From the NCBI GenBank assembly GCA_963762145.1, contig CAVXJS010000009.1, positions 320,001 through 384,000 of the forward strand: a stretch of 64,000 nt of DNA, read 5' to 3'. Shown in pieces: positions 4,053 through 61,386 of this stretch. Numbering within the stretch: the stretch's first letter is position 1; each line of letters opens with the position of its first letter. The notes below the pieces were generated by a model. The model was not told the origin of the DNA. It did no database searches and worked only from the letters and a program-made list of their open reading frames with translations. A program made the translations under genes and the position numbers. The DNA comes from an uncultured Candidatus Rokubacteria bacterium. GTDB taxonomy: Bacteria > Methylomirabilota > Methylomirabilia > Rokubacteriales > CSP1-6.

Positions 4053-4068
4053 TGGAATGACGCTTGCT
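4053..4068 (+). promoter_or_regulatory. sigma-54 (-24/-12) promoter
   Basis: TGGAATGACGCTTGCT = GG-N10-GC, close to consensus TGGCAC-N5-TTGCW, correctly oriented upstream of the 72-aa gene. Confidence 0.7.
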
Positions 4069-4095
4069 CTCACCCGGGGGCAGGAGGAGGGCCCG

Positions 4096-4314
4096 ATGAC
4101 CCCGAAGCTCATGACACTGGCCGCCGTCGTCGTCCTGACCGTCGTGTTCCTGAGCCCTGTCGCGTACATGGCGGGGCAGCGCGCCACCGTGTGGCTGACC
4201 GCGCCCGCGGCGGAGGCCAACGGCCCCTGGCCGAGCGTGGACGAGGCCGAGCGCGAGCACGGCCCGACCGAGCGCGCCAAGCCGCCCGTACGGCCCGGCT
4301 TCGGCGACATCTAG
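4096..4314 (+). CDS. small exported/membrane-anchored hypothetical protein (72 aa)
   Basis: Strong SD AGGAGG before ATG 4096. N-terminal hydrophobic helix (MTPKLMTLAAVVVLTVVFLSPVAYMAG). Confidence 0.65.
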   Translation: MTPKLMTLAAVVVLTVVFLSPVAYMAGQRATVWLTAPAAEANGPWPSVDEAEREHGPTERAKPPVRPGFGDI

Positions 4315-4339
4315 GCCGCACCCGGTCGATACTCGAGGC

Positions 4340-4985
4340 ATGGCCACGCTGACGGCCGGCCTCGACGCCCTGCTCCACGACGCGAGCCTGGTCTATCTCG
4401 GGACTCTTCCTGGCCGCACTGATCGACGCGACCGGATTCCCGTTTCCCGGGCGCGCGCTGCTCGTGGCCGCGGGCGCCGCCATGGCGAGAGACTGGGGGC
4501 AGGTCGCCCTGATGACCGCGGCGGGCGCGCTCGGCGCCGTCGTCGGTGATCACCTCTGGTACGCCGCCGGACGGCTGGGCGCGGCCGACCGGCTGACCCG
4601 GCTCTACTGCAAGCTCTCGCTCGCCTCCGGACGCTGCGAGGCCCGGGCCCGCTCCCGTTTCGACCGCTTCGGGCCGTTGGCCATCGTGATCGGGCGGTTC
4701 GTGGCCGGGGTGCGCCTCTTCGCGGCGCCGATGGCCGGCGGCGGGGCCATCTCCTACCCGCGCTTCCTCCTCTTCGAGCTGATCGGCGGCGTCGCCTGGG
4801 CCGGCCTCTTCGTCGCGGTCGGCTACGCGCTGGGTGCGCCGGCGCGCGCGCTGATCGAGCGCCACGGCTGGGGCGTGCCACTCGCCATCTTCGCGGGGCT
4901 GACGGTGCTCGGCCCCGCCGCGATCATCCTGGTGCGCCTGGCCCGCCGCCGGCGCCACGGGCCGGCGGGCGCGCCTACAGGGTGA
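4340..4985 (+). CDS. DedA family membrane protein (one apparent frameshift near 4402)
   Basis: Joined reading: YLG/LFLAALIDATGFPFPGRALLVAAG ... GDHLWYAAGR ... GRFVAGVRLFAAPMAG, all DedA motifs. Confidence 0.85.
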
Positions 4986-5712
4986 CCACCAGGCCGTCGT
5001 GGGCGCACTGCTCCGGCACGTCGGCCGCGGCGCGAGCATCTCGCGGCTCATGTGGGTGAGGATCAGGCGCCGGGCCCCGACCCGGCCCGCGTGGGCCACG
5101 ATGTCGGGGTAGTTCAGGTGCCACTTCACGGGCTTGTCGTAGAAGTAGGACTCCGCGATCAGAGATCGTATCCGGCGCGGCGCGGGCGATGTCGTCGGTC
5201 CATTCCGTGTCGCCGGTGTAGCAGATGGTCTTGTCGCCCACCTGGATGCGGAGCGCGGTCGGATTGGTCTCCTGCGGTGTGGCGGGCGCGCTCCGGGGTC
5301 ACGAGCAGATCGAGCACCGCGTGGGGCCGGCCCGGCTCCATCTCGACCCAGTCGAGCGGGAATCGGGGCGTCATCACGTGCGAGCCGGGGAAGAGCGCCT
5401 CGCGGATGGCGTCCATGCGCGGCGGAGCTCCCGCGGGCCCGCGATGACGAGGGGGCGGGTGCGCCGGGCCGCCAGCATCGCGTCCATGAGGAGGAACGGC
5501 ACCCCGGCGGCGTGATCGCCGTGCAGATGCGTGAGCAGGATGGCGTCGATCGAGTTGGGCTCGATGCCCTGCTGGGCCAGCGCGATGAGCGACGAGGCGC
5601 CGAAGTCGACCGCGAAGCGGCAGCGCGGCCCGTCCACCAGGAGGCAGGTCTGGAAGCGTCCTCCGCTCCCGAAGGAATCGCCGGAGCCGACGAAGCGCAC
5701 GGTGACGGGCAC
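4975..5712 (-). CDS. MBL-fold metallo-hydrolase, RNase Z/BN-like (several frameshifts)
   Basis: FVGSGDSFGSGGRFQTC, THLHGDH, YTGDT and LILTHMS motifs spread over three frames. Confidence 0.85.
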
Positions 5713-5800
5713 GGCCCGATCTTATGCGTCCAGGATCCGGCGCGAAAGGCGTGACGCGAAAAAGCTCCCGGGCCACGGCGCGGCCTGCGAGGATAGGCGC

Positions 5801-6625
5801 GTGCGGCTCTTCGACCGGAAGTTCGGCGCCGCATTCCTGGACGAGGTGCCCGCCGCGCCCGGCGTCTACCGCTTCCACGATGCGGCCGGCGCGCTCTTCT
5901 ACGTCGGGATGGCCACGAACCTGCGCCGGCGCCTCGGGCAGTATCGCCTCACGGGCCGCCGCAAGAAGGAGCGCAAGCGCCGCGCGCTCGTGAAGGCGGC
6001 CGCGCGCATCACCTGGGAGGTCTGCGAGTCGCCGCTGGCCGCCGCGCTCGCCGAGATCCGCCTCATCCAGACGCTCCGGCCGCCGCAGAACGTGGCGAGC
6101 GCCTTCCCGTTCCTCTACCCCTACGTCGGCGTCGCGACCGAAGGCGGGAGACCTACTTCTGCCTCACCACCGCGCCCGAGGCCTTCCCGGCCTTCACGTT
6201 CCACGGCGCCTTCCGCTCCCGCGAGGTGACCGGCGAGGCGTTCTTCCGCCTCATGGACCTGCTGCGCTACGTCGGCCACCCGGTGCCGCGCCATCGCTGC
6301 CGCCGCCTCGGCGCGGCCCGGCACTCCCACGTGCGCGGGTTCCGGCGCCTGCCCGCCGACAGCGCGGAGGCGTGGAGCGCGCTGCTGCGCGGGATCTCGC
6401 GGGAGGCGCTCGAAGGCGCTCGCCCTGCGCCTGCTGGATCACGCCGGGGCCCGGGCCCGGCGCGAGGAGACGCACAGGGCCCTCCGCGCGGTCGGACGGT
6501 TCTTCCGGCACGAGGCCCGGGTGCTGGCCCGGGTGCGGACGGCCACCGGCTACGCCCCCTACCCCGTGCCCCAGCGGGAGCGGGACCTGCTCTTCGCCCG
6601 CTACCGGGTCGAGGCCCTGACGTGA
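5801..6625 (+). CDS. GIY-YIG nuclease domain protein, UvrC N-terminal-like (frameshifted)
   Basis: PAAPGVYRFHD...FYVGMATNLRRRLGQY...AALAEIRLIQTLRPPQN. Continues through indels near 6150 and 6415 to TGA at 6623-6625. Confidence 0.8.
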
Positions 6626-6710
6626 CAGCGCTTGTCAAGCGAGGCGCACGTTTCGTAACTCGGTAAGAATGCTAGCGTTGTAAGGTGCCGTGCCTACACG
6701 CTCTCCCGGG

Positions 6711-6726
6711 TGGCACTTTCGGTGCA
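6711..6726 (+). promoter_or_regulatory. sigma-54 (-24/-12) promoter
   Basis: TGGCACTTTCGGTGCA = GG-N10-GC. Upstream TGACA-N5-TGTCA palindrome at 6623-6637. Confidence 0.7.
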
Positions 6727-6738
6727 CATCTCCCGGGC

Positions 6739-7142
6739 ATGCCCGCCGAACCCGCTGTCCAGGCGCATCCTCGTCGTCGACGACGACGCGGAGATCCGTG
6801 ATCTCCTGGCGACCGCTCTGGGCGCCGACGGGCACACGGTGGACGGGGCCCGGGACGGCGGCGAGGCCCTGGCGCTGCTCGAGCAGCACCCCTACGACCT
6901 GGTGCTGAGCGACCTGCGCATGCCCCACGTGGACGGCGCCCTCCCTCTACGAGACGCTCCAGACCCGCCACCACTTTCCGGTTCGCTTCGCCACCAAGCT
7001 GCCTCGCGTGATCTTCATGACCGGCAATCCCGCCGAGCACGCCGACTTCCTCCGCGGCACCACCGACCCGATCCTGGAAAAGCCCTTCGCGATCCGGATC
7101 GTCCGGAAGATGGTCCGCGTGCTCCTCTCCGCCACGTCCTAG
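6739..7142 (+). CDS. single-domain response regulator (frameshifted, start uncertain)
   Basis: RILVVDDDAEIRDLL...DLVLSDLRMPHVDG, then in another frame VIFMTG...ILEKPF, TAG at 7140-7142. Confidence 0.8.
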
Positions 7143-7151
7143 GCCGGCTCG

Positions 7152-8615
7152 ATGCGCCTCGCCACCAAGATCTTCCTCGTCTCGGCCCTCGTCATCCTCG
7201 TCCTCTGCGGCACCGCGCTGTGGAGCCTGCTCACGGTCAAGCGCCTCGTCACCGCGAACCAGGAGATCGCCACGCGCGCGGTGCCCGCGCTGCGCCTGCA
7301 GGGCGCGCTGCGCGAGGCGGTGCACGGGCTGGTGCGCCTCGAGGCCCGGGCCCTCGTGCTCCAGGACCGGGACTACGCGGCGATGTGGAACGACCGCGCC
7401 ACGCGCGTGACCCGCGACATGGACAAGCTCGGCTCGTACCTGGAGCAGGCCGAGGAGCGGACCGCGCACGCGCGCGCCCGCGAGGCCTTCGCGACGTACC
7501 GTGGCCACGTCGAGGCAGGAGCGCCGGCTCGTCGCGCTCGGCCAGACCCGGGCCGCGCTGCAGATCGCGGAGGGCACCGCGCGCGAGGCGGCGGAGCGCG
7601 TGGAGGCCGCCCTCACCGACGCCACCGCCGCGACCGAGGCGGGGCTGGCCGCGGGCCAGGCGCGCGCCCGCGCGCTCGAGGCCCGCACCTGGCGCGCGGT
7701 CAGCGCCGCGCTGGCCGCGAGCCTGCTCCTGGCCCTGGTGGCCAGCGCGCTGCTCGCCTACCGGATGGCGCGGTCGCTCGGCCGCCTGTCCGCGGCCACC
7801 ACGTCGCTCGCGGCCGGCACCTGGACCGGGCCCCTCGCGGTCACGGGCCGCGACGAGATCAGCGAGCTCGGCCGCGCCTTCAACCAGATGGCGGATCGGC
7901 TCAGCGAGGTCGACCGCCTCAAGGAAGAGTTCTTCTCGCACATCACGCACGACCTGCGGAACCCGCTGTCCTCCATCCGTCTCGCCGCCGAGGGCCTCGA
8001 GGAGCGGGCCAAGCTCGCGGGCGACGCGAAGCAGGCGCGGTTCGCCTACCTCATCGAGATCAGCGCGGCCCGCATGATGGCCATGATCAACCAGATTCTC
8101 GATTTCTCGCGCCTGCGCGCGCGCGCGGTGCCGCTGGAGCGCAAGCCGACCGACATCCTGAAGGTGGCCGGGCAGGCGATGGACGAGCTCCGGCCGCTGT
8201 CCGAGGAGAAGCGGATCCGCGTCGACCTCGCGGCGGAGGGCCAGGACTTCACGATGCTGGGGGACGAGGGCAGCCTGGTGCGCGTGGTCGTGAACCTGCT
8301 CGGCAATGCCCTGCACTTCACCGCGGTCGGGGGGAACGGTGCACGCGCGACTGGTGGAGCGGGCGGATCGGCTCGATCTCGCCATCGAGGACACCGGGGT
8401 CGGGATTCCCGGCCGACGCGCTGCCCTGGATCTTCGAGCCCTATCGTCAGGCCCACGGGCCGCGCAAGGGAACGGGCCTCGGCCTCGCGGTGGTGAAGGG
8501 TCTGGTGGAGGCGCACGGCGGCACGGTGGAGCGTGCGGTCGGAGGTGGGGAAGGGAGCCTGCTTCACGGTCACGATCCCGAAGGCGCCGATGGACCGTGG
8601 CGGTCGGCGACATGA
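7152..8615 (+). CDS. HAMP-domain sensor histidine kinase, GlrK/QseE-like (frameshifted)
   Basis: TM-periplasmic-TM, HAMP (GRDEISELGRAFNQM), H-box [38 protein letters not shown] across frames. Confidence 0.85.
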   Translation: MRLATKIFLVSALVILVLCGTALWSLLTVKRLVTANQEIATRAVPALRLQGALREAVHGLVRLEARALVLQDRDYAAMWNDRATRVTRDMDKLGSYLEQAEERTAHARAREAFATYRGHVEAGAPARRARPDPGRAADRGGHRARGGGARGGRPHRRHRRDRGGAGRGPGARPRARGPHLARGQRRAGREPAPGPGGQRAARLPDGAVARPPVRGHHVARGRHLDRAPRGHGPRRDQRARPRLQPDGGSAQRGRPPQGRVLLAHHARPAEPAVLHPSRRRGPRGAGQARGRREAGAVRLPHRDQRGPHDGHDQPDSRFLAPARARGAAGAQADRHPEGGRAGDGRAPAAVRGEADPRRPRGGGPGLHDAGGRGQPGARGREPARQCPALHRGRGERCTRDWWSGRIGSISPSRTPGSGFPADALPWIFEPYRQAHGPRKGTGLGLAVVKGLVEAHGGTVERAVGGGEGSLLHGHDPEGADGPWRSAT

Positions 8616-9142
8616 GCGCCCGGACGCGACGGCTCTCGTGGATCGCGCCGCTGCTGCTGCTCGCCGCATCGGGATGCAGCACGGGACGGCCGTCCCTGTG
8701 GGGCAGCGCGGCGCGGCCCGATCCATCTCTCGTGCGGCCCGCGGTCCGGCTGGTCGTCGAGGCGGACGACCTCGCGCGGCAGGGCGAGGCGCGGGCCGCC
8801 CTCGTCGCCTACGAGCGGGTGCTGCGCGAGCATCCCGGCGATCCGGCGGGCGCCGCCGCCCTGCACGGCCAGGGCCGCCTGCAGGCCGATCCGGCCAGCG
8901 GCGTCCGCAACTACCGGGCCGCGCAGCGCGCCTACGCGCAGCTCCTGGCCGAGTACCCGGACAGCCGCTGGGAGGCCGACGCGCGCGCGTGGCAGGTCGT
9001 GCTCGCCGACCTGATCGCTCGCGAGGCCGAGGCCGCGCGGCTCCGGGAGGAAACCGCGCGCCTCAAGGAAGAAGCGGTGCGGCTCCGGACGCAGATCGAG
9101 CGGCTGCGGCGCACCGACCTGGATCTCGAGCGGCGCCGCTAG
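8612..9142 (+). CDS. TPR/coiled-coil lipoprotein, QseG-like accessory protein
   Basis: ATGA overlap with the kinase, lipobox LAASGC, TPR-like helices (AYERVLREHPGDP; YAQLLAEYPDSRW), C-terminal coiled coil ending DLDLERRR. Confidence 0.75.
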   Translation: MSARTRRLSWIAPLLLLAASGCSTGRPSLWGSAARPDPSLVRPAVRLVVEADDLARQGEARAALVAYERVLREHPGDPAGAAALHGQGRLQADPASGVRNYRAAQRAYAQLLAEYPDSRWEADARAWQVVLADLIAREAEAARLREETARLKEEAVRLRTQIERLRRTDLDLERRR

Positions 9143-10485: not shown

Positions 10486-10815
10486 TCAACTCGCCCGCAC
10501 TTGCAGGTTGTTCACGACCTGGCGGACGCCCTTGACCCCGCGCGCGACCTCCGAGGCCCGGGCCCGCATCTCCGCCGACGTCACGGTCCCGTTGAGCGCC
10601 ACGATGCCCTGGTTGGTATCCACGTCGATCCGGGTCACGGTGGAGATCTTCTCGCCGGCCAGCTTCGCCTTGACCTGCGACGTGATGCCCGCGTCGTCGA
10701 TGTTCTCGCCGAGGGTCTTGCCGGTCATGCTGGTGCACGCCGCCAGCACCATCATGATCGCTACCGCGACTCCCACCATCCCGTTCACGCTGCGCACCCG
10801 CGCCATCCACCTCAT
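10486..10815 (-). CDS. BON-domain (OsmY-like) lipoprotein
   Basis: Lipobox VLAAC. DDAGITSQVKAKL...IDVDTNQGIVALNGTV...GVKGVRQVVNNLQV is a classic BON domain. Confidence 0.9.
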   Translation of the reverse strand: MRWMARVRSVNGMVGVAVAIMMVLAACTSMTGKTLGENIDDAGITSQVKAKLAGEKISTVTRIDVDTNQGIVALNGTVTSAEMRARASEVARGVKGVRQVVNNLQVRAS

Positions 10816-10862
10816 CGTCACGTCTCCCCCCACCCTATCTACCTGCTGGTGAGCGGCAAGAT

Positions 10863-10878
10863 AGCAAGGAGCATGCCC
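10863..10878 (-). promoter_or_regulatory. sigma-54 (-24/-12) promoter for the BON gene
   Basis: Minus strand GGGCATGCTCCTTGCT = GG-N10-GC. Confidence 0.72.
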
Positions 10879-13313: not shown

Positions 13314-13403
13314 GGCCCCTACTGTACTCCGGTCGGCCGGGCCGTGGCGGTTGTCGCGATCAACTACCGGCCCTGAAGGTATTACCGGGCGGAAAACCTG
13401 ACC

Positions 13404-13496
13404 GGGAAGATTGTTCCTGAATAATCTTCCCTGACATCGTCTGGCGCCTCGCAACTAGTTAATTTACAGACTCTCTGTTCTGGCATGCGCTGTGCC
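13404..13496 (+). promoter_or_regulatory. sigma-54 promoter with IHF-like site and palindromic enhancer
   Basis: Inverted repeat GGGAAGATTGTTC-CT-GAATAATCTTCCC (13404-13431). IHF-like AATTAACTAGTTG on minus strand (13452-13464, one mismatch to WATCAANNNNTTR). TGGCATGCGCTGTGCC -24/-12 at 13481-13496. Confidence 0.75.
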
Positions 13497-13553
13497 TCCC
13501 GTAGCGACCTTCCCATCCGCCAGACGCCTGCTCGTGATCAATGGAGGATCAGC

Positions 13554-25005: not shown

Positions 25006-25021
25006 TGCAGAGGCTGTGCCA
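25006..25021 (-). promoter_or_regulatory. sigma-54 (-24/-12) promoter for the HesB-like/ABM operon
   Basis: Minus strand TGGCACAGCCTCTGCA = GG-N10-GC. Confidence 0.75.
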
Positions 25022-25174
25022 GCGATGCTCCCCGGGGCGGAAGCGCGATCCGCGGCCGGGAAAGCCCGGGCGCCCCGGCCCGGCGGGTACGACTTACCGT
25101 GCAGAAATTCCCGGGCGTGCAGTTCTGACGAGTGGCGGCTTGACGACGCTGCGGCGACGGGCCAGTATCTCGGC

Positions 25175-48129: not shown

Positions 48130-48177
48130 CGTGCACAGCCCAATTGGGTTTCGGATGGGCTTGATGACGCAAGGCCA

Positions 48178-49272: not shown

Positions 49273-49367
49273 AGTCCCTCAGATCGGCCGCGGCAATGGC
49301 TCGACACGAGCGTGTCACGGATTAGCGAGTTGGTGGTCGGCCGGCACGGGTGGCCCGGCGCGCCCGG

Positions 49368-50546: not shown

Positions 50547-50691
50547 CTGCCCAGGAACGCGGCGCGGTACCCGCGCCCCGCGCGTCCCTTCATGCGGAGT
50601 CGGTAGGCCTTACCGGAAAGGTCTTCCTGACGAGGCGGCGCGGGACGCCGCACGGGTCGAGAAAGGCCGAACTTTGTGGCGAGGCTCCCGC

Positions 50692-50707
50692 TGGCAATCC
50701 GCTTGCA
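50692..50707 (+). promoter_or_regulatory. sigma-54 (-24/-12) promoter for the GT4 operon
   Basis: TGGCAATCCGCTTGCA, near consensus. Upstream GGAA-N5-TTCCTGA at 50615-50630. Confidence 0.78.
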
Positions 50708-50719
50708 CCCGAGTTTGCC

Positions 50720-51763
50720 ATGCGAGTCGCTCACATCGCTCCGCTTTACGAGCGCGTGCCGCCCACGCTCTACGGGGGCACCGAGCGCATTGTCTCTTAT
50801 CTGGTCGAGGAACAGGTCCGCCGGGGCCACGAGGTCACCCTCTTCGCGAGCGGGGACTCGCGCACCGCGGCGACCATCGTGGCCGCGGTCCCGCGCGCCC
50901 TGCGGCTGGACGCCGGGCACGGCGATCCGATCGCCCCGCACGTGGTAGAGCTCGCGCAGGTGTTCGAGCAGGCGGACGAGTTCGATCTGATCCACAGTCA
51001 CGTGGACTACCTAGCGTTCCCTTTCTCGCAGCTGGTATCGACGCCCACCGTGCACACGCTCCACGGCCGCCTCGATCTCCCGCATTTTCGGCCGATGATG
51101 GCCCACTTCGCCGACATTCCGCTCGTCTCGATCAGCAACGCGCAGCGCCGGCCGCTCGAGCCGCTCCCGCTCAACTGGACGGCTACGGTGTACCACGGGT
51201 TGCCGCTCGATTCCTACAGTCCGGGGCGCGGGGACGGGGGCTACGTCGCGTTCCTGGGACGGATCTCACCGGAGAAGGGCCCCGCGGTCGCCATCGCCGC
51301 GGCCAAGGCGGCCGGGGTACGGCTCAAGATCGCGGCCAAGGTCGACCCGGTGGATCGCCCGTTCTTCGAGTCCGAGATCGAGCCGCTGCTCGACGACCCG
51401 CTGATCGAGTACGTCGGCGAGATCGGCGAGGCCGACAAGCCGAGGTTCCTGGGCGAGGCGATAGCGCTGCTCTTCCCGATCGACTGGCCGGAGCCGTTCG
51501 GGCTCGTGATGATCGAGGCCCTCGCCTGCGGCACTCCGGTGGTCGCGCGGCCGTGCGGCTCGGTGCCCGAGATCATCACGCCGGGCCGCACCGGCTTCCT
51601 CGCGGATACCCTCGACGAGATCGTGGAAGCGCTGCGACGCGTGGAAAGTCTGGATCGGGCGCACTGCCGGCGCGAAGCGGAGGGGCGCTTCAGCGTCGAG
51701 CGGATGGTCAACGACTACGACGCGGTCTACGAGAGCCTCGCCACCGGCGCCCAGCTCACCTGA
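50720..51763 (+). CDS. glycosyltransferase family 4
   Basis: MRVAHIAPLYERVPPTLYGGTER, FLGRISPEKG, WPEPFGLVMIEALACGTPV. Confidence 0.93.
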   Translation: MRVAHIAPLYERVPPTLYGGTERIVSYLVEEQVRRGHEVTLFASGDSRTAATIVAAVPRALRLDAGHGDPIAPHVVELAQVFEQADEFDLIHSHVDYLAFPFSQLVSTPTVHTLHGRLDLPHFRPMMAHFADIPLVSISNAQRRPLEPLPLNWTATVYHGLPLDSYSPGRGDGGYVAFLGRISPEKGPAVAIAAAKAAGVRLKIAAKVDPVDRPFFESEIEPLLDDPLIEYVGEIGEADKPRFLGEAIALLFPIDWPEPFGLVMIEALACGTPVVARPCGSVPEIITPGRTGFLADTLDEIVEALRRVESLDRAHCRREAEGRFSVERMVNDYDAVYESLATGAQLT

Positions 51764-51781
51764 CCCGACGAGAACGATGAC

Positions 51782-53920: not shown

Positions 53921-53923
53921 ACG

Positions 53924-55591
53924 ATGGGTGCGACCCGGAACCGCCCTGGAGCGCGACGCCCGACGCGGCCGAAGACCCGCCGCGCGGCGAAGCCGGCTCG
54001 CCCGAAGTCCCGGCGCCTCCGCGCGCCGGAAACCCCATCCCGCGAGGCCCGACCGGAGAGCGTGTCCCTGTGGATGGCGACCGAGACGATTCCGCCGCGG
54101 CCCCGTCTGACCCGGGGCCGGACCGTCGACGTGTGCGTGATCGGCGCCGGAATCGCCGGACTCAGCGCCGCCTATCAGCTCGCCCGCGCCGGCCAGTCGG
54201 TCGTCGTGCTCGACGACGGGCCCATCGGCGGGGGCCAGACCGGTCGCACCACCGCGCATCTCTCCCACGCGATGGACGTCGGGTACCAGACCATCCGGCG
54301 GCTGCACGGCGAGGAGGGCGCACGGCTGGCCGCGGCCAGCCATTCCGCGGCGATCGACGAGATCGAGACGATCGCGAGCCAGGAGGGCATCGCGTGCGAC
54401 TTCGAGCGGGTGCCCGGTCACCTGTTCGTCCCTCGGGGGGAATCCCCCGCGGTGCTCGAGCGGGAGCTAGAGGCGGCCCACGCCGCAGGCCTCGACCGCG
54501 TGGAGCTCCTCACGACGACTCCGACGCTCGGCGCCGGCGCCGGGCCCTGCCTGCGCTTCCCCGATCAGGCGCAATTTCACCCGCTGCGCTATCTGGCCGG
54601 GCTCGCGGCCGCGATCGAGCGCCGCGGCGGCGCGATCTTCACCAACGTCCACGCCGAGACCGTCGAGCCCAAGGGCGCCACCCAGCGCGTGAAGACCGCT
54701 GCCGGCCGCGCCGGCGTGACCGCGGGCGCGGTGATCGCCGCCACGAATGCCCCGATCCTCGGGCCGCAGACGCTCCACGCCAAGCAGGCCGCGTACCTGA
54801 CCTACGTGATCGGCGCGAGCATCCCGGCCGGCGCGGTGCCCCATGGGCTGTACTGGGACACCGAGGATCCGTACCACTACGTGCGCGTTCAAGCGCGGGA
54901 GCCCGCCGCGGCGGGCGAGGTCCTGATCGTGGGGGGTGAGGATCACAAGACCGGCCAGGCCCCCGGGGGTGCTGACGACAGCGCCAACCGCTACCGGGCG
55001 CTCGAGGCGTGGGCGCGCGCGCGCTTCCTGATGATCGAGGAGGTGGAGTTCCGCTGGTCCGGGCAGGTCATGAACTCGCTCGACGGGCTCGCCTTCATCG
55101 GCCGGGCGTCCGAGCAGGACCCCGGCGTGTACCTGGCCACCGGGGACACGGGCATGGGGATGACCCACGGCACGATCGCCGGCATGCTGCTTCGCGATCT
55201 CATCCTCGGCCGCGAGAATCCCTGGCGGGCCCTGTACGACCCGTCGCGGCTGATGCTCCGGGCCGCGCCGACCCTGGTACGCGAGAACGTGAACGTCGCG
55301 GCTCAGTACGCGGACTGGATCACCCCGGGGGCGGTCTCATCCGTCGACGAGATCCCGCCCGGGCAGGGCGCGCTCCTGCGGCGCGGCCTCGCCAAGATCG
55401 CGGCCTACCGGGATGACACGGGACGCGTGCACGAGCGCTCCGCGGTGTGTCCCCACATGGCCTGCATCGTGGCCTGGAACTCGGCGGAGAAGACCTGGGA
55501 CTGTCCGTGCCACGGCTCGCGCTTCGACGCGGTCGGGCACGTCATCAATGGACCGGCCAATGCCAACCTGGCGCCGGCGGAGGGCGAGTGA
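53924..55591 (+). CDS. FAD-dependent oxidoreductase with C-terminal Rieske domain (YhfW-like)
   Basis: IGAGIAG, TGRTTAHL, QAQFHPLRY, WSGQV, GMTHGT. Rieske CPHMAC and WDCPCHGSRF. Confidence 0.92.
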   Translation: MGATRNRPGARRPTRPKTRRAAKPARPKSRRLRAPETPSREARPESVSLWMATETIPPRPRLTRGRTVDVCVIGAGIAGLSAAYQLARAGQSVVVLDDGPIGGGQTGRTTAHLSHAMDVGYQTIRRLHGEEGARLAAASHSAAIDEIETIASQEGIACDFERVPGHLFVPRGESPAVLERELEAAHAAGLDRVELLTTTPTLGAGAGPCLRFPDQAQFHPLRYLAGLAAAIERRGGAIFTNVHAETVEPKGATQRVKTAAGRAGVTAGAVIAATNAPILGPQTLHAKQAAYLTYVIGASIPAGAVPHGLYWDTEDPYHYVRVQAREPAAAGEVLIVGGEDHKTGQAPGGADDSANRYRALEAWARARFLMIEEVEFRWSGQVMNSLDGLAFIGRASEQDPGVYLATGDTGMGMTHGTIAGMLLRDLILGRENPWRALYDPSRLMLRAAPTLVRENVNVAAQYADWITPGAVSSVDEIPPGQGALLRRGLAKIAAYRDDTGRVHERSAVCPHMACIVAWNSAEKTWDCPCHGSRFDAVGHVINGPANANLAPAEGE

Positions 55592-57027
55592 TGAATCGAG
55601 CATGGGGCATCGGCCTGGCGGTGGTGGGGATCGGGGCGTCGATCGCGATGGCGTGGACGCTCAGCGTGCAGGCACAAGGCGGCGCGACGACGGGCGCTCC
55701 GCCGCGCATGCCTCCGGCGCCCGCCAAGTCGAGCTACACGCCGGTCGTGGAGGAGCCGTTCGAGACCGTGTTCAAGCGGATGACCGCCGCGAAGGACGAC
55801 GTGATGAACCGCCAGATGGGCCTGCTCGCCGAGCGCTACGACCTGGCCGATCGTCCGGCCTCCGGCGTGACGATGAGCGGGGGCAAGGCGGTCCAGGCCG
55901 GCGTGCGCGTCAAGCTGCCTCCCGGAGCGACCTGGGACAGCCTGGCCCGCATGAGTCCGGACGAGATCCGCGACAAGAAGTTCTTCCCGTCCGGGTTCCT
56001 CCCCCTGCCCCATCCGAACCATCCGGAGGGCGGGATGGTCTTCCCGAAGTTCCAGATCGACGAGGTCCGCAAGCAGACCGGGCGGGACCTGACCCGGTTC
56101 GATCTCGACTTCGACCTGCCGGACCGATTCTTGCCCGAGTTCCCCGCGCCGATCTTCCTCATCACCCGGCCGGATCTGGGCGACGTCTCGAAGGGCCAGC
56201 TCGTCACGACCGATAACTTCTACGAGCTGTTCAACGGCATCCTGAATCCCAAGCAGATCGAGGGCCTCCGGCTCCTGCTGACCCCGTTCCCGCAGCAGCA
56301 GTTCAACCTGACCGCGGACCGCCGCAGCCCGCATCCGAGCCTCGGCGTGGCGTGCCTCGATTGCCACCAGAACGGCAGCAGCAACGGGGCGACGCACCTG
56401 GTCGGCGACATCCGGCCTCAGGAGTTCCGGCGGCGCATCGACACCCCCGCGCTGCGCGGCCTCAACATCCAGCGCCTCTTCGGCTCCCAGCGGGCGCTCA
56501 AGACGGTGGAGGACTTCACCGAGTTCGAGCAGCGCGCGGCCTACTTCGACGGGGATCCGGTCATCGCCACCAAGAAGGGCGTCAACCCACTCGAGCGCGG
56601 CAGCCAGGTGCACTTCATGGCCGAGTTCCAGGAGCTGCTCGACTTCCCGCCGGCGCCGAAGCTCGACGTCTTCGGGCGCCTGGACCCGAAGAAGGCGACC
56701 CCGGCCGAGCTGCGCGGCCAGGCCCTGTTCTTCGGCCGGGCCCAGTGCGGCACTTGCCACCCGGCTCCCTACTACACCGACAACTCGATGCACAACCTCC
56801 GCGCCGAGCGCTTCTACCGGCCGGTCGTGGTCAATGGCCGGATGGCATCCGCCGATGGCCCGATCAAGACGTTTCCCCTGCGCGGCATCAAGGACACGCC
56901 GCCCTATCTGCACGACGGCCGGCTGCTCACGCTGGACGACACGGTCGAGTTCTTCAGCCTCGTGCTGGGCATCCCGCTGACCGCGGCGGAGAAACAGGAC
57001 CTGGTCGTCTTCCTCCGCGCCCTGTAG
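55591..57027 (+). CDS. exported diheme cytochrome c (cytochrome c peroxidase/MauG superfamily)
   Basis: Signal peptide, two CxxCH motifs (CLDCH, CGTCH), DTPALRG, KTFPLRGIKDTPPYLHDGRLLTL, DLVVFLRAL. TGATG coupling to the upstream gene. Confidence 0.88.
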   Translation: MNRAWGIGLAVVGIGASIAMAWTLSVQAQGGATTGAPPRMPPAPAKSSYTPVVEEPFETVFKRMTAAKDDVMNRQMGLLAERYDLADRPASGVTMSGGKAVQAGVRVKLPPGATWDSLARMSPDEIRDKKFFPSGFLPLPHPNHPEGGMVFPKFQIDEVRKQTGRDLTRFDLDFDLPDRFLPEFPAPIFLITRPDLGDVSKGQLVTTDNFYELFNGILNPKQIEGLRLLLTPFPQQQFNLTADRRSPHPSLGVACLDCHQNGSSNGATHLVGDIRPQEFRRRIDTPALRGLNIQRLFGSQRALKTVEDFTEFEQRAAYFDGDPVIATKKGVNPLERGSQVHFMAEFQELLDFPPAPKLDVFGRLDPKKATPAELRGQALFFGRAQCGTCHPAPYYTDNSMHNLRAERFYRPVVVNGRMASADGPIKTFPLRGIKDTPPYLHDGRLLTLDDTVEFFSLVLGIPLTAAEKQDLVVFLRAL

Positions 57028-57095
57028 CCGGCCGGGGTCCGGCACGCTCGGCTTGACGCTGCGCCCGCGGCGGCGTCACTATCCCCCGAGTCCCC

Positions 57096-58268
57096 ATGAC
57101 CTCCGTGTCCCCCTTCGTCCCCGGCTCGGCGGTACGGATCGCCGGCGCCCCCGGCGGCCCGCTCGCCGGCCTGACATTCGCGGCCAAGGACCTCTTCGAC
57201 GTCGCGGGATATCCGACCGGCGGCGGCAACCCGGACTGGGCGCGGCAGCACGCGGTTCCGACGCGGCACGCCTGGGCGGTGCAGCGATTGCTCGACGCCG
57301 GCGCGACGCTGATCGGCAAGACCATCACCGACGAGATCTCGCTCGGCATCCTGGGCGAGAACGCCTTCGACGGCACCCCGCTCAATCCCCACGCGCCCGA
57401 TCGCGTGCCCGGCGGATCGTCCTCGGGCTCGGCCTCGGCGGTGGCCCAGGGTCTCTGCGACACCGCGCTCGGCACCGACACCGGCGGCTCGGTGCGGGTG
57501 CCGGCGAGCTTCTGCGGCCTGCACGGCATCCGCCCCACCCACGGCCGCCTCGACCTCACCGGCATGATGCCGCAGGCGCCCAGCTCGGACACCACCGGCT
57601 GGTTCGCCCGCGACGCGCAGACCTTCGCGCGGGTCAGCGAGGTGATGCTCGGCGAGCCGGTCCCGCCCGCGCTGCCCACGCGCCTCGTCGTCGCACAGGA
57701 CGCCTTCGGCCTGGCCGACGAGGAGACGGCCGGCGCGCTCCAGCCGATGGTGAGTCGCCTCGCCGCGCTCATGAAACACGTCCAGGAGGACGTCATGGCG
57801 CCGCCCGGCCTCACCGCCTGGGCGCGGGCCCAGCGCACCCTGCAGCCGTGGGAGGCGTGGCTCACCTTCAAGGAATGGATCGACCGGGACAACCCGCGCA
57901 TGGCGTTCGGCGTGGCCCGCAACCTCGCGCTCGGCAGCGCGATCCCCGAGAGCGAGCGGCAGTGGGCCGCGCTGGTGCGCGCCGAGGCCCGCGCCCGGCT
58001 CACCACGCTCCTCCCCGCGGGGACGATCCTCTGCCTGCCGACCACGCCGTTCCCCGCGCCGCTCCGGGGCCTGCCCCTCGCGACCCTCGAGCCGCTGCGC
58101 GCCCGCATCACGTGCCTGGCCGCGCACGGTGGCCTCGCCGGCTTCCCGCAGGTGAGCCTGCCCGGCGCGCACGTCGGCGGGCTGCCGGTGGGCCTGTCCG
58201 TCCTGGGCCGGCGCGGCAGCGACGCCACGCTGGTGGCGGTGGCGCAGGCCATGGAGGCTGCTCGATGA
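57096..58268 (+). CDS. amidase (amidase-signature family)
   Basis: GPLAGLTFAAKD, PGGSSSGSA, GTDTGGSVRVPASFCG. Confidence 0.92.
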   Translation: MTSVSPFVPGSAVRIAGAPGGPLAGLTFAAKDLFDVAGYPTGGGNPDWARQHAVPTRHAWAVQRLLDAGATLIGKTITDEISLGILGENAFDGTPLNPHAPDRVPGGSSSGSASAVAQGLCDTALGTDTGGSVRVPASFCGLHGIRPTHGRLDLTGMMPQAPSSDTTGWFARDAQTFARVSEVMLGEPVPPALPTRLVVAQDAFGLADEETAGALQPMVSRLAALMKHVQEDVMAPPGLTAWARAQRTLQPWEAWLTFKEWIDRDNPRMAFGVARNLALGSAIPESERQWAALVRAEARARLTTLLPAGTILCLPTTPFPAPLRGLPLATLEPLRARITCLAAHGGLAGFPQVSLPGAHVGGLPVGLSVLGRRGSDATLVAVAQAMEAAR

Positions 58269-58669
58269 CCGATCTGACGCCCAATCGCCCCGAGGTGGTC
58301 GCCGAGGTCCGCGCGCTGTTCGAGCGCTACGAGCAGGCGCTGATCGACAAGTCGGTCGACGTGCTCGACGCCACGTTCTGGAACAGCCCCCACACGATCC
58401 GCTACGCGCTGCACGAGAACGGCTACGGGTTCGACGCGATCCACGCCCACCGGGTCGCGCGCCCGCCCGGCCCCGGCATCAAGGAGCAGCGCCTGCGCCT
58501 CGAGATCCTCACGCTCGGGCGCGACCTGGCCACCGTGAACCTCGAGTTCAAGGTGCGCGGCCGCGACCTGGTCGGCCGCCAGAGCCAGACGTGGGTGCGC
58601 TTTCCCGATCTCGGCTGGAAGGTCGTCGCCGCCCACGTCTCCACGATGAACGCAGCGCCGCTCTGGTGA
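58265..58669 (+). CDS. hpxZ: oxalurate catabolism protein HpxZ / AtzH-like
   Basis: PEVVAEVRALFERYEQAL, FWNSPHTIRY, ENGYG, GRQSQTWVRF, GWKVVAAHVS. ATGA overlap with the amidase. Confidence 0.85.
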   Translation: MTDLTPNRPEVVAEVRALFERYEQALIDKSVDVLDATFWNSPHTIRYALHENGYGFDAIHAHRVARPPGPGIKEQRLRLEILTLGRDLATVNLEFKVRGRDLVGRQSQTWVRFPDLGWKVVAAHVSTMNAAPLW

Positions 58670-58715
58670 GCCCGGCGCCACCCTCCGCCGACCGACCGCT
58701 CGGGCCTTCTCTACG

Positions 58716-59144
58716 TCAGCGCGCGCCGCGCGATCGCCCCACGGGAAGCGCCTCGAGGGCGGCCTTGATCAGGAACGCGGCCGCCGCCGAGCCCGCCGCC
58801 GCGAGGATCCGCTGGGTGACCGTAGGCTCCGTCGCCACACGCTCGGGCCGATCGATCATGCGACCGACGGCCTCGCGCAGGCGGCCGCCGCGGGCGAGCA
58901 GGGTGTTCCGACGGCGGGCCCGCCAGACCCCGAGCGCAATCGCGCCCGCCGTCACGGCCCCCATGGCCAGCACGGTCGTGGTGACGCCCAGGGCGTGGCG
59001 CCGAACCTGGAGCCCGACGTCGGTGAGCTCGTGGCCCCGCTGGCTCAATTCCGCGACCCGCGCGGTGAGCTCCTGCCGCTGGCGCATGATCCCGGCCTCG
59101 ATCTGCCGGGGATCGCGCGGCGGCTCCTCCCGGATGTCGGTCAC
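58716..59144 (-). CDS. DUF3618-like small membrane protein
   Basis: RDPRQIEAGIMRQRQELTARVAEL followed by hydrophobic helices. GTGA overlap with the upstream gene. Confidence 0.65.
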   Translation of the reverse strand: MTDIREEPPRDPRQIEAGIMRQRQELTARVAELSQRGHELTDVGLQVRRHALGVTTTVLAMGAVTAGAIALGVWRARRRNTLLARGGRLREAVGRMIDRPERVATEPTVTQRILAAAGSAAAAFLIKAALEALPVGRSRGAR

Positions 59145-60592
59145 GCCACCTGGTCCTTGAGCCATTTCCAATCCGCCTTCAGTGACTTCCGCGTGAGCGC
59201 GAGGGCCGAGCGAGGACGCTGCGCCCAGCCGATGAAGCCGGCGGTCGCCCCCCCGACGAGCACGACTCCGCCCACGAGCAGCGCGGCCAGCCAGCCCGGC
59301 ATGAACGGGACGAGTGCCAGGACCACCGCCACCAGCAGGAGGGTGACGCCGATGATGGCCGCCACCACGGCCAGCACAAGCCCGACCGCGGTCCGGCGCG
59401 CGGCCTTCAGGTCGCTCGCCAGCTCCGCGCTCGCCAGCTCCACCTCGCTCTGGGCGAGCTGCAGGAGCCGGCCACCGACCTCGCCGACCAGCTTCCAGCT
59501 ACTCGGGCCGCCCTCCGTCCGCTTCGTCCCGTTCGTGCGCGCCCGGTCCTCGTATCGCTCCATCGTTTCCTCCTGGTGAATCAACCCGGCGAGCAGCTGT
59601 GGCTTGCCCTCGAGGGCACGGCTCACCTGCAGCGCCTTGCGATAGATGATCTGCCATTCGTCGTACGCGATGGGGAGGGCCTCGATCTCGCGCACGATCT
59701 CCCGGAGGCGCGCCGCGGGCACCGATTCCGGCGGCCCGGTCGTGGTTCCCCGCGCCGCCTGCCACAGGCGCGCGATCCGCCGCTCGATCGCCTGCGCCCG
59801 CGGGTCGGATGTCTGCCAGACGTCGAGATCGCTCACCCCTTCCACGACGAGACCCTGAGCCGGCGCCAGCACATCCGGCCGGCCCCGGATCAGGAGCCCA
59901 CTCGGGTAGAGCGCCAGGGTCAGATCCCGGCCCGCGAAATACGCGAGGTCGGCCGGAACACGGCTCTGGAAGGCGTCGTGATCCATGGCGCTGAGCACCC
60001 GCAGTGGGGCGGTCAGCCACCAGGGAGGCCGGGCACGTCCCACCACCCGGCCATGCTCTTCCAGGATGGTCGGTATCCGCTGCGCGACCTGCGCATACGA
60101 GGCCGCGTCGGTCAGCAGCGGCACCTGCACGTCCTTCCGCCGCCTCGCCGCGGAAATCAATCGCAGGACGGGCACGGTCACCAGGGTGATCGAGAGCGCG
60201 GCGGAGAGGCCGACGGTGATCGGGAACCCGCGGAGGAGCCGGATCGGCCATGACCGCTTCGGCCGATCCTCGGGCTGCCGGGCCGCCATGGCCGCTCCGA
60301 CCGCCAGGGGCACCGCCAGAGCCAGGCCGATCCAGAACCAGCGGACGACCGAGGACGGAACCCACTCTGGAATCGGCACGAACGCCAGCACGTACGCCGC
60401 GACCTTCGGCGCCGCCACCCCCAGGAGCAGCAGCGGCCAGGCGCCGGCCGCCGCCAGCAACGCGGACAGGAAGACCTTCTCGGTCCCACTCGCGTACCCG
60501 AAGATCGCGACGACGGCCCAGTCGAACAGCGCGCTCAGGATCTTCCCGAACGAGCGACTGACGAAGGCGACGAGGGCCTGGATGATCGCCAT
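59141..60592 (-). CDS. membrane protein with C-terminal phage-holin-like (YqjE-type) domain
   Basis: N-terminal multi-TM domain. C-terminal LLQLAQSEVELASAEL...PGWLAALLVGG...TRKSLKADWKWLK. Internal SD+ATG at 59563. Confidence 0.75.
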   Translation of the reverse strand: MAIIQALVAFVSRSFGKILSALFDWAVVAIFGYASGTEKVFLSALLAAAGAWPLLLLGVAAPKVAAYVLAFVPIPEWVPSSVVRWFWIGLALAVPLAVGAAMAARQPEDRPKRSWPIRLLRGFPITVGLSAALSITLVTVPVLRLISAARRRKDVQVPLLTDAASYAQVAQRIPTILEEHGRVVGRARPPWWLTAPLRVLSAMDHDAFQSRVPADLAYFAGRDLTLALYPSGLLIRGRPDVLAPAQGLVVEGVSDLDVWQTSDPRAQAIERRIARLWQAARGTTTGPPESVPAARLREIVREIEALPIAYDEWQIIYRKALQVSRALEGKPQLLAGLIHQEETMERYEDRARTNGTKRTEGGPSSWKLVGEVGGRLLQLAQSEVELASAELASDLKAARRTAVGLVLAVVAAIIGVTLLLVAVVLALVPFMPGWLAALLVGGVVLVGGATAGFIGWAQRPRSALALTRKSLKADWKWLKDQVA

Positions 60593-60604
60593 GCCGGATC
60601 ACAT

Positions 60605-60620
60605 AGCAAACGCCGTGCCC
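60605..60620 (-). promoter_or_regulatory. sigma-54 (-24/-12) promoter for the holin-like/DUF3618 operon
   Basis: Minus strand GGGCACGGCGTTTGCT = GG-N10-GC, 12 nt before the ATG. Confidence 0.75.
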
Positions 60621-60678
60621 GGACAGAACACGAGCGCCGAGAAGCCTCTCGACGCTCGCGTGTCCCTGGAGTCGTGCG

Positions 60679-61140
60679 CTACGGCTTCAGCTGACCGCGA
60701 ATCTCGCCCGCCGGGTTGGCCGCGCTGTGCACGTTGACGTAGAGGTTCCCCGACCGGTAGGAATCGAACTGGGAGCTCGACAGGACCGTGTTGCCGGGAA
60801 CCGACCAGACGTTCGCGCCCGTCTTGACCAGCGGGATGATGACCGGGCCGTTCTGCCCGCTCGCACCCTCGTGGATATGCGCGGCGGTGGCGTTGATGTT
60901 GCTGGTCTCCACCTGCCCGGTGATGACCTTGTCGCCGACGACCGTGATCGAGCTGCGGCCCGACGCCTGGGTGTTCACGGGCGGAACTTCCTGAGCGCCA
61001 CTCAGGACCATCAGGGTCTTGGCGCCGGACGCCTCCATCTTCTTCTCGACCCCTTCCATCTTCGCGCACCCGCTGAGGGCAAGGACCGCCGCGAGGACCG
61101 TTCCCGCCGTCCACATCGTCCGATTCCGTGAAACGCGCAT
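60679..61140 (-). CDS. CHRD-domain lipoprotein
   Basis: Lipobox LALSGC. LSGAQEVPPV, TAAHIH, NGPVIIPL, GNLYVNVHSAANPAGEIRGQL. SD GGAGG. Confidence 0.92.
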   Translation of the reverse strand: MRVSRNRTMWTAGTVLAAVLALSGCAKMEGVEKKMEASGAKTLMVLSGAQEVPPVNTQASGRSSITVVGDKVITGQVETSNINATAAHIHEGASGQNGPVIIPLVKTGANVWSVPGNTVLSSSQFDSYRSGNLYVNVHSAANPAGEIRGQLKP

Positions 61141-61205
61141 TGTCGCCTCCAAGAGTGCTGGGGTTAATAACGGATGGATCGCCGATTTCGCACGCACCGC
61201 CACTT

Positions 61206-61221
61206 AGCAATCGATGTGCCG
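61206..61221 (-). promoter_or_regulatory. sigma-54 (-24/-12) promoter for the CHRD gene
   Basis: Minus strand CGGCACATCGATTGCT. Palindrome CCCGGAA-N5-TTCCGGG at 61308-61326. Confidence 0.75.
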
Positions 61222-61386
61222 CGCGTGCCGAGGCTGCAAGGTCTCGGAGAGATTCGGGTCGGGCCCCCTCGAGTCCGAGCGTCGACATCGGACCCCGGTC
61301 AGGACAACCCGGAAATATCTTCCGGGGGACTCCGTTGACAGCCCGGCCGGCCGCCCGTATGGTGCGGGCACGAGGAGGCCCAACCC

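Follow-up and report, generated by a model that had tools for sequence, protein, structure and literature searches.

Which protein reads a set of promoters that lie dispersed among ordinary genes, and do these promoters serve one programme? The question is raised by a stretch of 64,000 nucleotides (nt) from an uncultured Candidatus Rokubacteria bacterium (the window, i.e., G000:C9:320001-384000, where G000 is the genome of the window), in which eight GG-N10-GC motifs of the sigma-54 (-24/-12) type precede genes of diverse function. Sigma-54 promoters require an ATP-dependent bacterial enhancer-binding protein (bEBP), and a previous sequence-only reading had suggested that one activator with a shared GGAA-N5-TTCC enhancer runs a general stress programme from them. 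We consider it likely that the window instead samples a very large multi-activator sigma-54 network. Its largest sub-regulon would be marked by the palindromic word (dyad) GGWA-N5-TWCC, with two NtrC-type bEBPs encoded on other contigs (C19 and C15) as candidate activators. Rokubacteria are, to our knowledge, abundant in soil and have no cultured representative.

Data and scoring

G000 comprises 6.26 Mb in 25 contigs, has 70% G+C and is 88% complete. Its genes come from a simple codon-usage caller, which yields 6268 genes with approximate starts at 83.5% coverage and thereby 5.23 Mb of coding and 1.03 Mb of non-coding DNA. Two scores were used for sigma-54 sites. The consensus score takes GG-N10-GC plus seven further consensus positions and counts sites with 6 or 7 matches, and the sigma-54 matrix spans 22 nt and was refined on the genome's own sites. 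The best promoter set holds 204 sites of at least 12 bits in non-coding DNA with a gene start within 400 nt (105 regions). Pfam was run on the 203 first genes behind them (one open reading frame (ORF) of less than 20 residues was excluded), with E-value limits of 1e-4 (first 100 genes) and 1e-5 (remaining 103).

The chance level within the window was estimated from 200 first-order Markov simulations. For the phylum we used 101 sampled genomes, which are related, so that their counts are not independent. The per-genome counts take in G029, G047 and G058, and no claim depends on these three. Promoters are named by the first base of the 16-mer for + sites and by its low end for - sites.

Sigma-54 promoters in the window

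All eight motifs are present at the coordinates and strands that had been reported, each upstream of a gene and aimed at it. They keep GG and GC exactly 10 nt apart, as in the consensus TGGCAC-N5-TTGCW, and match 5-6 of the seven further consensus positions. The promoters and the genes behind them are:

4053..4068, + strand: promoter core TGGAATGACGCTTGCT (TGGAAT-N5-TTGCT, 18.3 bits), predicted to drive an ORF of 72 amino acids (aa; 4096-4314)
6711..6726, + strand: promoter core TGGCACTTTCGGTGCA (TGGCAC-N5-GTGCA, 13.6 bits), ahead of a response regulator, a HAMP-HisKA/HATPase kinase and a TPR/YfiO-like gene (6710-9142), frameshifted in the assembly
10863..10878, - strand: promoter core GGGCATGCTCCTTGCT (GGGCAT-N5-TTGCT, 17.9 bits), predicted to drive the BON gene 10486-10797 (10486-10833 in the Pfam assignment)
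13481..13496, + strand: weak promoter core TGGCATGCGCTGTGCC (TGGCAT-N5-GTGCC, 9.8 bits), ahead of a poly-HAMP hybrid kinase (13485/13554-19253) and a gene with response regulator, GAF, kinase and response regulator parts (to 21328)
25006..25021, - strand: weak promoter core TGGCACAGCCTCTGCA (TGGCAC-N5-CTGCA, 10.5 bits), ahead of a 107-aa ORF (24656-24979) and an ABM gene (24324-24659)
50692..50707, + strand: promoter core TGGCAATCCGCTTGCA (TGGCAA-N5-TTGCA, 16.6 bits), ahead of a GT4 gene (ATG 50720, to 51763), a GDE/MGH1-like gene, a DAO-Rieske gene and an unknown gene
60605..60620, - strand: promoter core GGGCACGGCGTTTGCT (GGGCAC-N5-TTGCT, 18.6 bits), ahead of the gene of a 483-aa protein with C-terminal Holin-X (Phage_holin_3_6) domain (59141-60592) and a DUF3618 gene (58716-59171)
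61206..61221, - strand: promoter core CGGCACATCGATTGCT (CGGCAC-N5-TTGCT, 18.3 bits), predicted to drive the CHRD gene 60679-61116 (60679-61203 in the Pfam assignment)

The gene labels given from sequence alone were mostly right, i.e., Pfam bears out BON (67 bits), the poly-HAMP kinase, ABM, GT4, GDE, DAO plus Rieske, DUF3618, Holin-X and CHRD (110 bits). The 72-aa ORF, the supposedly HesB-like ORF 24656-24979 and the supposed cytochrome ORF 55447-57027 have no Pfam family at E <= 0.001. The assignments for GT4, the GDE/MGH1-like glycosidase and DAO-Rieske span 50363 to 55591. The hybrid kinase (13485-19253) has 1922 aa, with nine to ten HAMP/HAMP_2 repeats followed by GAF, HisKA, HATPase and two receiver domains.

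Promoter matches versus chance

Six of the window promoters are strong (13.6-18.6 bits) and two are weak (9.8 and 10.5 bits). At a threshold of at least 13.5 bits the window has 6 hits, compared to a simulated mean of 0.75 (maximum 4), such that the strong motifs exceed what simulated sequence yields. At 9.5 bits or more, 11 hits face 5.5 +/- 2.4, and hence the motif alone gives promoters 13481 and 25006 no significance. The window holds no further strong sigma-54 site; its other hits (11.7 and 12.7 bits) are within coding sequence.

The same separation is observed genome-wide. The consensus score yields 250 matches. An intergenic position with a gene start ahead at no more than 400 nt is found for 189 of them, another 29 are intergenic otherwise and only 32 are coding, despite about five times more coding than non-coding DNA. 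Matrix hits in non-coding and coding DNA number 200 and 27 at 14 bits or more, 247 and 80 at 12 bits or more, and 319 and 258 at 10 bits or more. The density of sigma-54 sites in non-coding DNA is thus about 37-fold that in coding DNA, and their orientation is strongly biased toward genes. If the coding hit rate is taken as the false-positive rate, we estimate by our own arithmetic about 230-270 real sigma-54 promoters. The word TGGCAYN5TTGCW occurs 42 times in the genome compared to 3 occurrences of its reversed control, and it exceeds this control in 101/101 phylum genomes, with typically 10-35 copies in genomes of the window's family and 26-77 in one small-genome family. Sigma-54 use on such a scale is therefore a lineage trait.

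Start codons give independent support for functional sites. ORFs of 45 or more codons begin with an ATG or GTG located 13, 14 and 15 nt past the -12 C at 14, 27 and 8 promoters, respectively, i.e., at 49/204, with only 0-13 promoters for each other offset from 0 to 59 nt. Across the 101 genomes, TGGCAYN5TTGC is followed by ATG after 13-14 nt in 395 cases versus 113 for 19-20 nt; within the window's family, the summed tables give 332 versus 80. This geometry implies sigma-54 transcripts at the 49 promoters that would be leaderless or nearly so. Within the window, it is seen for GT4 (ATG at 50720, 13 nt past the -12 C of promoter 50692) and Holin-X (ATG at 60592, likewise 13 nt past the -12 C of promoter 60605). 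Promoter 6711 also has an ATG 13 nt past GC, which in the present assembly does not share the frame of the receiver ORF, and the 72-aa ORF 4096-4314 has a leader of the Shine-Dalgarno type. In the available part of a study that mapped transcription starts (PMC3616915), leaderless mRNAs are not linked to sigma-54.

Promoters also recur at orthologous loci. A promoter 45-50 nt before the aligned GT4 start is kept at 8 of 15 loci from 7 genera (five of the 15 have no such site), and the Holin-X promoter of the same-genus genome G019 scores 18.7 bits at 11 nt before the aligned start. We thus find it extremely improbable that the motifs are chance matches in GC-rich DNA without promoter function. 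The two weakest window sites do fall inside the simulated range, in line with chance, but the excess of strong sites in the window, the non-coding enrichment and orientation bias, the reversed control, the conserved orthologue promoters and the sharp start-codon spike all run counter to it. Motif presence, enrichment, orientation, spacing and conservation, as well as rpoN and the bEBPs described below, are computed observations, and the sites behave as real sigma-54 promoters, as had been supposed: rpoN is present, sites are enriched in non-coding DNA and point to genes, and the GT4 promoter is conserved.

Contigs assembled from four RNA-labelled runs cover parts of 52000-61500. Such contigs cannot show transcript starts, their ends do not coincide, and DNA carry-over is possible. 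Two metatranscriptome runs of a single study contribute short contigs without differences on CHRD, Holin-X and DAO-Rieske, again with possible DNA carry-over. Soil metagenomes of no fewer than 11 studies contain this DNA. The bin 61193-61500 has no depth in three low-share RNA-labelled runs and has depth in a run that is possibly DNA.

Sigma-54 machinery

The presence of rpoN, on which the sequence-only reading depended, is confirmed by a PF04552 hit of 210.5 bits on a 490-aa ORF; the adjoining ORF is presumably RapZ-like. The closest RpoN relatives are 62-98% identical and stem nearly all from metagenome-assembled genomes of Candidatus Rokubacteria, Rokuibacteriota or Methylomirabilota. As to activators, PF00158 gives scores above 190 bits for 21 ORFs and one further copy is frameshifted, i.e., the genome encodes about 22 bEBPs.

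Upstream of rpoN and on the same strand, a sigma-54 promoter of 21.4 bits is located ahead of lptC (G000:C11:883118-883139, L151). Given this position, rpoN may be under positive autoregulation via the lptC promoter.

An upstream dyad shared by many promoters

The three GGAA-N5-TTCC sites reported for the window are all found (13405-13417, 50615-50627 and 61311-61323). The first two end 65 and 66 nt before GG, in agreement with the earlier statement, and the third ends 91 nt before it. The exact word is no suitable definition of a regulon, though, since it is rare (39 genome copies, 18 of them intergenic) and found upstream of only 6/189 strong promoters. What had been taken for a shared enhancer is one form of a real, position-specific dyad, and we thus replaced the exact word by GGWA-N5-TWCC.

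This dyad results from an enumeration over the 200 nt upstream of the 204 promoters versus 1585 control upstream regions, which gave TAC-N3-GTA, GTA-N5-TAC and GGAA-N5-TTCC; these merge into GGWA-N5-TWCC. Exact matches are found upstream of 28/204 promoters but only 22/1585 controls (Fisher 6.6e-15). The spacer is specific, i.e., the counts for promoters versus controls are 2 vs 16 (N3), 5 vs 5 (N4), 9 vs 9 (N6) and 2 vs 8 (N7). With a symmetric dyad matrix of 17 nt (CCGGWA-N5-TWCCGG) and a threshold of 10 bits or more, 49/204 promoters and 29/1585 controls are found. From these counts, GGWA-N5-TWCC appears to be a previously undescribed, predicted activator-binding site common to about a quarter of the promoters.

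Position and orientation agree with such a role. Dyads start 47-143 nt before the -24 GG, mostly at 74-91; their centres fall 54-106 nt ahead of -24 and most often at 69-73 or 83-86 nt. Of the intergenic dyads, 36/68 have at a distance of 30-220 nt a sigma-54-like site that points away from them, compared to 5.3% of random intergenic positions and 3/36 coding dyads. The dyads of the window, listed without strand, are:

13374..13417: three-dyad cluster ahead of promoter 13481, made of TGAAGGTATTACC (13374-13386, 15.2 bits), GGAAAACCTGACC (13391-13403, 9.5 bits) and GGAAGATTGTTCC (13405-13417, 12.9 bits)
25086..25098: dyad GGTAAGTCGTACC (read on the - strand), exact GGWA-N5-TWCC, 15.7 bits, about 80 nt from -24 of promoter 25006
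50602..50627: two abutting dyads ahead of promoter 50692, GGTAGGCCTTACC (50602-50614, 18.4 bits) and GGAAAGGTCTTCC (50615-50627, 16.2 bits)
61311..61323: dyad CCGGAAGATATTTCCGG, 21.2 bits, the window's best, 91 nt from the -24 GG of the CHRD promoter

The dyad 25086-25098 and the first GT4 dyad 50602-50614 were absent from the earlier list. In total, four of the eight window promoters have a dyad ahead (13481, 25006, 50692, 61206), and a fifth, 6711, has a distal dyad-like site (GGACGGTTCTTCC, 6494-6506, 11.9 bits). Copy numbers vary: promoter 13481 has three dyads, 50692 has two and many promoters show a third half-site, and many other promoters, 25006 and 61206 included, have a single recognisable dyad. 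In the same-genus genome G019, a dyad (GGAAGTCTTTACC) is likewise kept ahead of the GT4 promoter, and the CHRD locus of G019 has a promoter-like site of 11.8 bits with the dyad GGTAAGCCCTACC upstream. Helical phasing of the dyad was considered and dropped as a weak signal (Rayleigh p 0.002-0.04 over six periods, uncorrected).

Would a protein other than a bEBP account for the dyad, e.g., a repressor, a co-regulator that happens to go along with sigma-54 promoters, or a factor that bends DNA or is nucleoid-associated? We judge this quite unlikely. It would fit that 32/68 intergenic dyads have no sigma-54-like site of at least 9 bits within 30-220 nt, that the above 29 of 1585 control regions score as well, and that sigma-54 promoters also precede genes for a ROS/MucR-type regulator and for HU. 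The positions of the dyad, however, are distributed as those of upstream activator sites, the palindrome has the 5-N5-5 layout of NtrC-type sites with tandem copies at several promoters, and two NtrC-type bEBP genes lie directly behind dyad-plus-promoter modules.

Candidate activators and proposed mechanism

These two genes, both outside the window, are G000:C19:238387-239757 and C15:346802-348202. Each encodes a protein with receiver (REC), AAA+ and HTH_8 domains. The proteins are 55% identical, carry GAFTGA (C19) and GAFTDA (C15), and have the segment NNNKTRAAE.L...KTLHN of the helix-turn-helix region in common. The C19 gene is part of a cluster of four dyad promoters with genes for PsiE, a response regulator with ANTAR domain and MlaC nearby. 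Behind the C15 gene come a HisKA fragment and a PAS kinase.

Two alpha-amylase-family genes and an MscS-like gene (L178:10209-15778, G000:C19:231334-236906) adjoin the dyad-regulated psiE-PCC-bEBP unit. The former two we take to be TreY/TreZ-like. These neighbours hint at an osmotic or desiccation theme for the C19 activator.

We also followed the joint dyad-plus-promoter pattern over the 101 genomes. It occurs 16 times in G000, 5, 6, 5 and 1 times in four same-genus genomes, 0-4 times per genome in other genera of the family, and in 3/41 genomes of other families, compared to 2 control matches in all 101 genomes. Orthologues of the C19 bEBP are 89-93% identical in the window's genus (g1). Identity is 71-72% for G078 and G030 and 64% for G097 and G042, and the majority of the remaining hits, with 55-63%, are at paralogue level. 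The closest orthologues (at least 71%) are thus found in the genomes richest in dyad modules (g1, G078), which is suggestive only, because the genomes are kin.

Given these observations, we propose the following mechanism. The eight window sites would be classical -24/-12 promoters read by RpoN holoenzyme, each in need of an ATP-dependent bEBP. Promoters 13481, 25006, 50692, 61206 and perhaps 6711 would be members of the largest sub-regulon, which is defined by the putative palindromic enhancer (C)GGWA-N5-TWCC(G), with two or three copies at some promoters. A dimer-forming response-regulator bEBP of the NtrC type most likely binds the dyad, forms a ring and remodels the closed complex through DNA looping. 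The best candidates for this role are the presumably self-regulated paralogues C19:238387-239757 and C15:346802-348202 with their common recognition-helix region. Promoters 4053, 10863 and 60605 probably answer to other bEBPs, and stress genes would be split between at least two enhancer classes rather than obey one master switch. The binding of the dyad by the C19 and C15 bEBPs, the inducing signals and the transcription starts are what we infer here from sequence.

Genes behind the promoters

Among the 203 first genes, 77 have no Pfam family. Signalling is represented by 13 single-domain response regulators, 4 PilZ proteins, GGDEF/EAL proteins, kinases, 4 bEBPs and 3 HTH_8 fragments, and the ROS/MucR-type regulator and the HU gene are also found behind sigma-54 promoters. 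Envelope genes comprise 3 MlaC, 1 MlaA, LptC, 2 AsmA-like, OmpA, peptidoglycan-binding proteins and 5 pilins; Poly_export, Bac_transf, PEP-CTERM and 4 FecR-domain proteins add to this exterior group. Stress-type first genes are CBS (6), BON (4), Hsp20 (3), Usp (2), DksA (2), HPF, CsbD, Transgly_assoc, PRC, PsiE, hemerythrin, CHRD, Holin-X, YHS, an HtrA-like protease and a proteasomal ATPase. KdpA and few metabolic genes complete the set.

With regard to whole predicted sigma-54 transcription units in G000, the following shares of genes are observed:

BON: 6/10 genes
Hsp20: 4/5 genes
CsbD: 1/1 genes
Usp: 4/17 genes
all genes: 390/6268 (6%)

Stress families are thus strongly over-represented, and the impression of a stress theme gained from the window alone was therefore right. 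The regulon is much broader than stress, though, with signalling, envelope, exopolysaccharide and pilin genes. Taken together, these genes point to a network with roles in the envelope, osmotic/desiccation, starvation and signalling. Targets of the dyad class include BON (three genes), CHRD, PsiE, YHS, PRC, GT4-GDE and an alpha-amylase-family gene; most of them are small unknown, envelope or signalling proteins.

One activator or several

Stress genes are packed most densely on another contig, in an island (C21:1.12-1.19 Mb; C21:1119620-1190250, L206-L209) with 18 sigma-54 promoters and genes for CBS, Hsp20, Usp, BON, DksA, HPF, HU, OmpA and DUF308. Its promoters have no dyad. Instead, they are preceded by GCCCCA/TGGGGC inverted repeats and GCCTCA, and CCCCA is found upstream of 12/18 island promoters versus 236/1771 others. 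The island also encodes a bEBP of its own (C21:1182686-1183186). The window differs from the island in that its promoters are dispersed among ordinary genes, half of them using GGWA-N5-TWCC.

Other sigma factors were assessed as well, since the stress programme had been proposed to replace RpoS, SigB and EcfG. The genome has 19 Sigma70_r2 hits, which NCBIfam models sort into one RpoD (716 bits), a second RpoD-like protein below cut-off and about 14 ECF sigmas. RpoS had been expected to be absent, but a group-2 sigma of 313 aa is closest to RpoS with 320 bits on TIGR02394 (cut-off 378.7; L244:1267-2205, G000:C5:61025-61963), i.e., an RpoS-like factor is present, though below the model's cut-off. 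The corresponding expectation for SigB agrees with the data: no SigB/F/G-type sigma and no FliA reached cut-off among the NCBIfam models in G000, whereas EcfG/PhyR were not specifically searched. An RpoN-to-RpoS cascade, as known in Borrelia, was rejected, as no sigma-54-like site of at least 8 bits lies ahead of the RpoS-like gene.

A protein with an N-terminal receiver followed by an ECF-sigma-like region 2, the reverse of the PhyR order, is encoded at L259:1072-2226 (G000:C9, ~421.4-422.6 kb) among sigma-54-driven HtrA-like and Transgly_assoc genes.

We are now able to weigh the proposal that a single activator with a shared enhancer runs one general-stress, desiccation or dormancy programme in place of RpoS/SigB/EcfG, fed by the sigma-54-driven kinases. 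Enriched stress families, the size of the dyad class (49/204) with its BON, CHRD, PsiE, YHS, PRC, GT4-GDE and alpha-amylase-family targets, the alpha-amylase-family and MscS-like neighbours of the C19 bEBP, and the lack of a SigB/F/G-type sigma above cut-off speak for it. Yet the genome encodes about 22 bEBPs, the dyad is present at four of the eight window promoters (five with the distal site) and about a quarter of all promoters, and the C21 island with its Hsp20, Usp, CBS, HPF and DksA genes uses a different motif and its own bEBP. Furthermore, most dyad targets are small unknown, envelope or signalling proteins, the RpoS-like sigma is present, and no link connects the window kinases to an activator; that these sigma-54-driven kinases feed the activator is pure conjecture. 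The single programme is therefore unlikely in our view, and a network of several activators with the dyad class as its largest part remains the preferred reading.

Several observations weigh against the latter and should be set beside it. Within the window, promoters 10863 (nothing above 2 bits) and 60605 have no upstream dyad according to the dyad matrix, and the sole dyad upstream of 4053 is an N6 variant (GGTAAATCTCTACC, 3987-4000). For promoters 13481 and 25006 the motif by itself scores close to the chance level, and they gain credit solely from their position and upstream dyads. The phasing signal is weak, as said. Orthologues agree in part with the conservation that real sites were expected to show: it holds for GT4 (8/15 loci) and, in G019, for Holin-X and CHRD, but GT4 orthologues outside the genus keep the promoter with no recognisable dyad, their upstream DNA being coding, and 0/4 CHRD loci in other genera have a promoter or dyad. 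The link of the dyad to a specific bEBP is suggestive and rests on autoregulation and on co-occurrence in related genomes. Promoter activity at the sites is predicted, and distances as well as operon membership are approximate because of the crude gene caller and assembly frameshifts.

Further features of the window

Catabolic and transport genes of the window had been assigned TTGACN/TAnnnT promoters, which is not supported: a strict sigma-70 scan of 30001-50000 finds 1 site where 0.8 are expected. This lone strong match, TTGACA-16-CATAAT at 34167-34194, is located just ahead of an SBP_bac_5 solute-binding gene.

Positions 39420-43365 encode a subtilase (778 aa) followed by a protein with the catalytic domain of a Tle1-like phospholipase of the type VI secretion system (Pfam 239 bits). 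The window shows no secretion genes.

Single genes are split over reading frames at four places, i.e., the regulator/kinase 6710-8615, an ABC transporter (29019-30300), a CoA-transferase (46817-47848) and an amidase/AtzH-like gene (57053-58669). Since domains of single genes are distributed over frames, the assembly carries indel errors, and the splits probably reflect such errors and not pseudogenes.

Comparison with known systems

Our literature search returned nothing on sigma-54 or RpoN in Rokubacteria and nothing that joins RpoN with Hsp20, universal stress protein and enhancer-binding; for Methylomirabilis with sigma54 it gave unrelated papers only, judged by the search listing. What is new is the regulon with its enhancer word and two candidate regulators identified by locus, all from an uncultured phylum, and the logic of promoter and enhancer is classical. 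As the mechanism is textbook, the advance lies in scope and detail, not in principle. A map of more than 200 promoters, an enhancer word and two candidate activators provide testable handles on gene regulation in Rokubacteria. The result would also mean that gene families governed elsewhere by RpoS, SigB or EcfG can come under activator-dependent sigma-54 control at large scale.

A more far-reaching idea, which we consider possible but doubtful, is that sigma-54 could be the main route for stress, dormancy and envelope-remodelling genes in this lineage, organized in few very large enhancer classes (the dispersed dyad and the island), with about a quarter of the promoters fused to start codons and making leaderless mRNAs. 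If true, activator-gated transcription with zero background would be tightly coupled to Shine-Dalgarno-independent translation in slow-growing or dormant soil cells.

General stress regulons are governed by RpoS in Gammaproteobacteria, SigB in Firmicutes and EcfG in Alphaproteobacteria. The families found here, i.e., BON/OsmY-like, CsbD, Hsp20, Usp, Transgly_assoc, PRC-barrel, HPF and DksA, overlap with those of these regulons. Unlike there, the promoters of G000 are of sigma-54 type with predicted ATP-driven activators and several enhancer classes, and an RpoS-like sigma is encoded in addition.

Sigma-54 promoters of the NtrC type, e.g., glnAp2, have tandem upstream dyads. G000 resembles this type in the -24 GG/-12 GC core at fixed spacing, in palindromes about 100 bp upstream that come in two or three copies at some promoters, and in candidate activators that are response regulators with REC, AAA+ (GAFTGA) and HTH_8. 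It differs in the half-site CGGWA, in targets related to envelope, stress and signalling rather than nitrogen assimilation, and in a far larger number of predicted promoters (about 49).

The theme of the targets is close to the view of sigma-54 as 'controller of the bacterial exterior' (Francke et al. 2011, PMC3162934), given the Mla, LptC, AsmA-like, peptidoglycan-binding, OmpA, pilin, exopolysaccharide export and PEP-CTERM genes of G000. Hsp20 and universal stress proteins go unmentioned in the excerpts of that work available to us, which apparently do not cover this phylum.

The layout of the dyad matches the one given for NtrC-like regulators in work on NmpR, a regulator of this kind from Myxococcus xanthus which, according to the part of its description at hand (PMC11841059), binds GCGCA-N5-TGCGC, i.e., 5-nt half-sites with an N5 spacer. 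Half-site sequence and phylum differ, and the NmpR targets given in that part are oxygen-use genes. Within these bounds, both cases combine an NtrC-like regulator (here a candidate) at sigma-54 promoters with a 5-N5-5 inverted repeat, two sites per promoter (here at 50692, for instance), the regulator's own operon as a target (here a predicted one), and a soil bacterium with many bEBPs.

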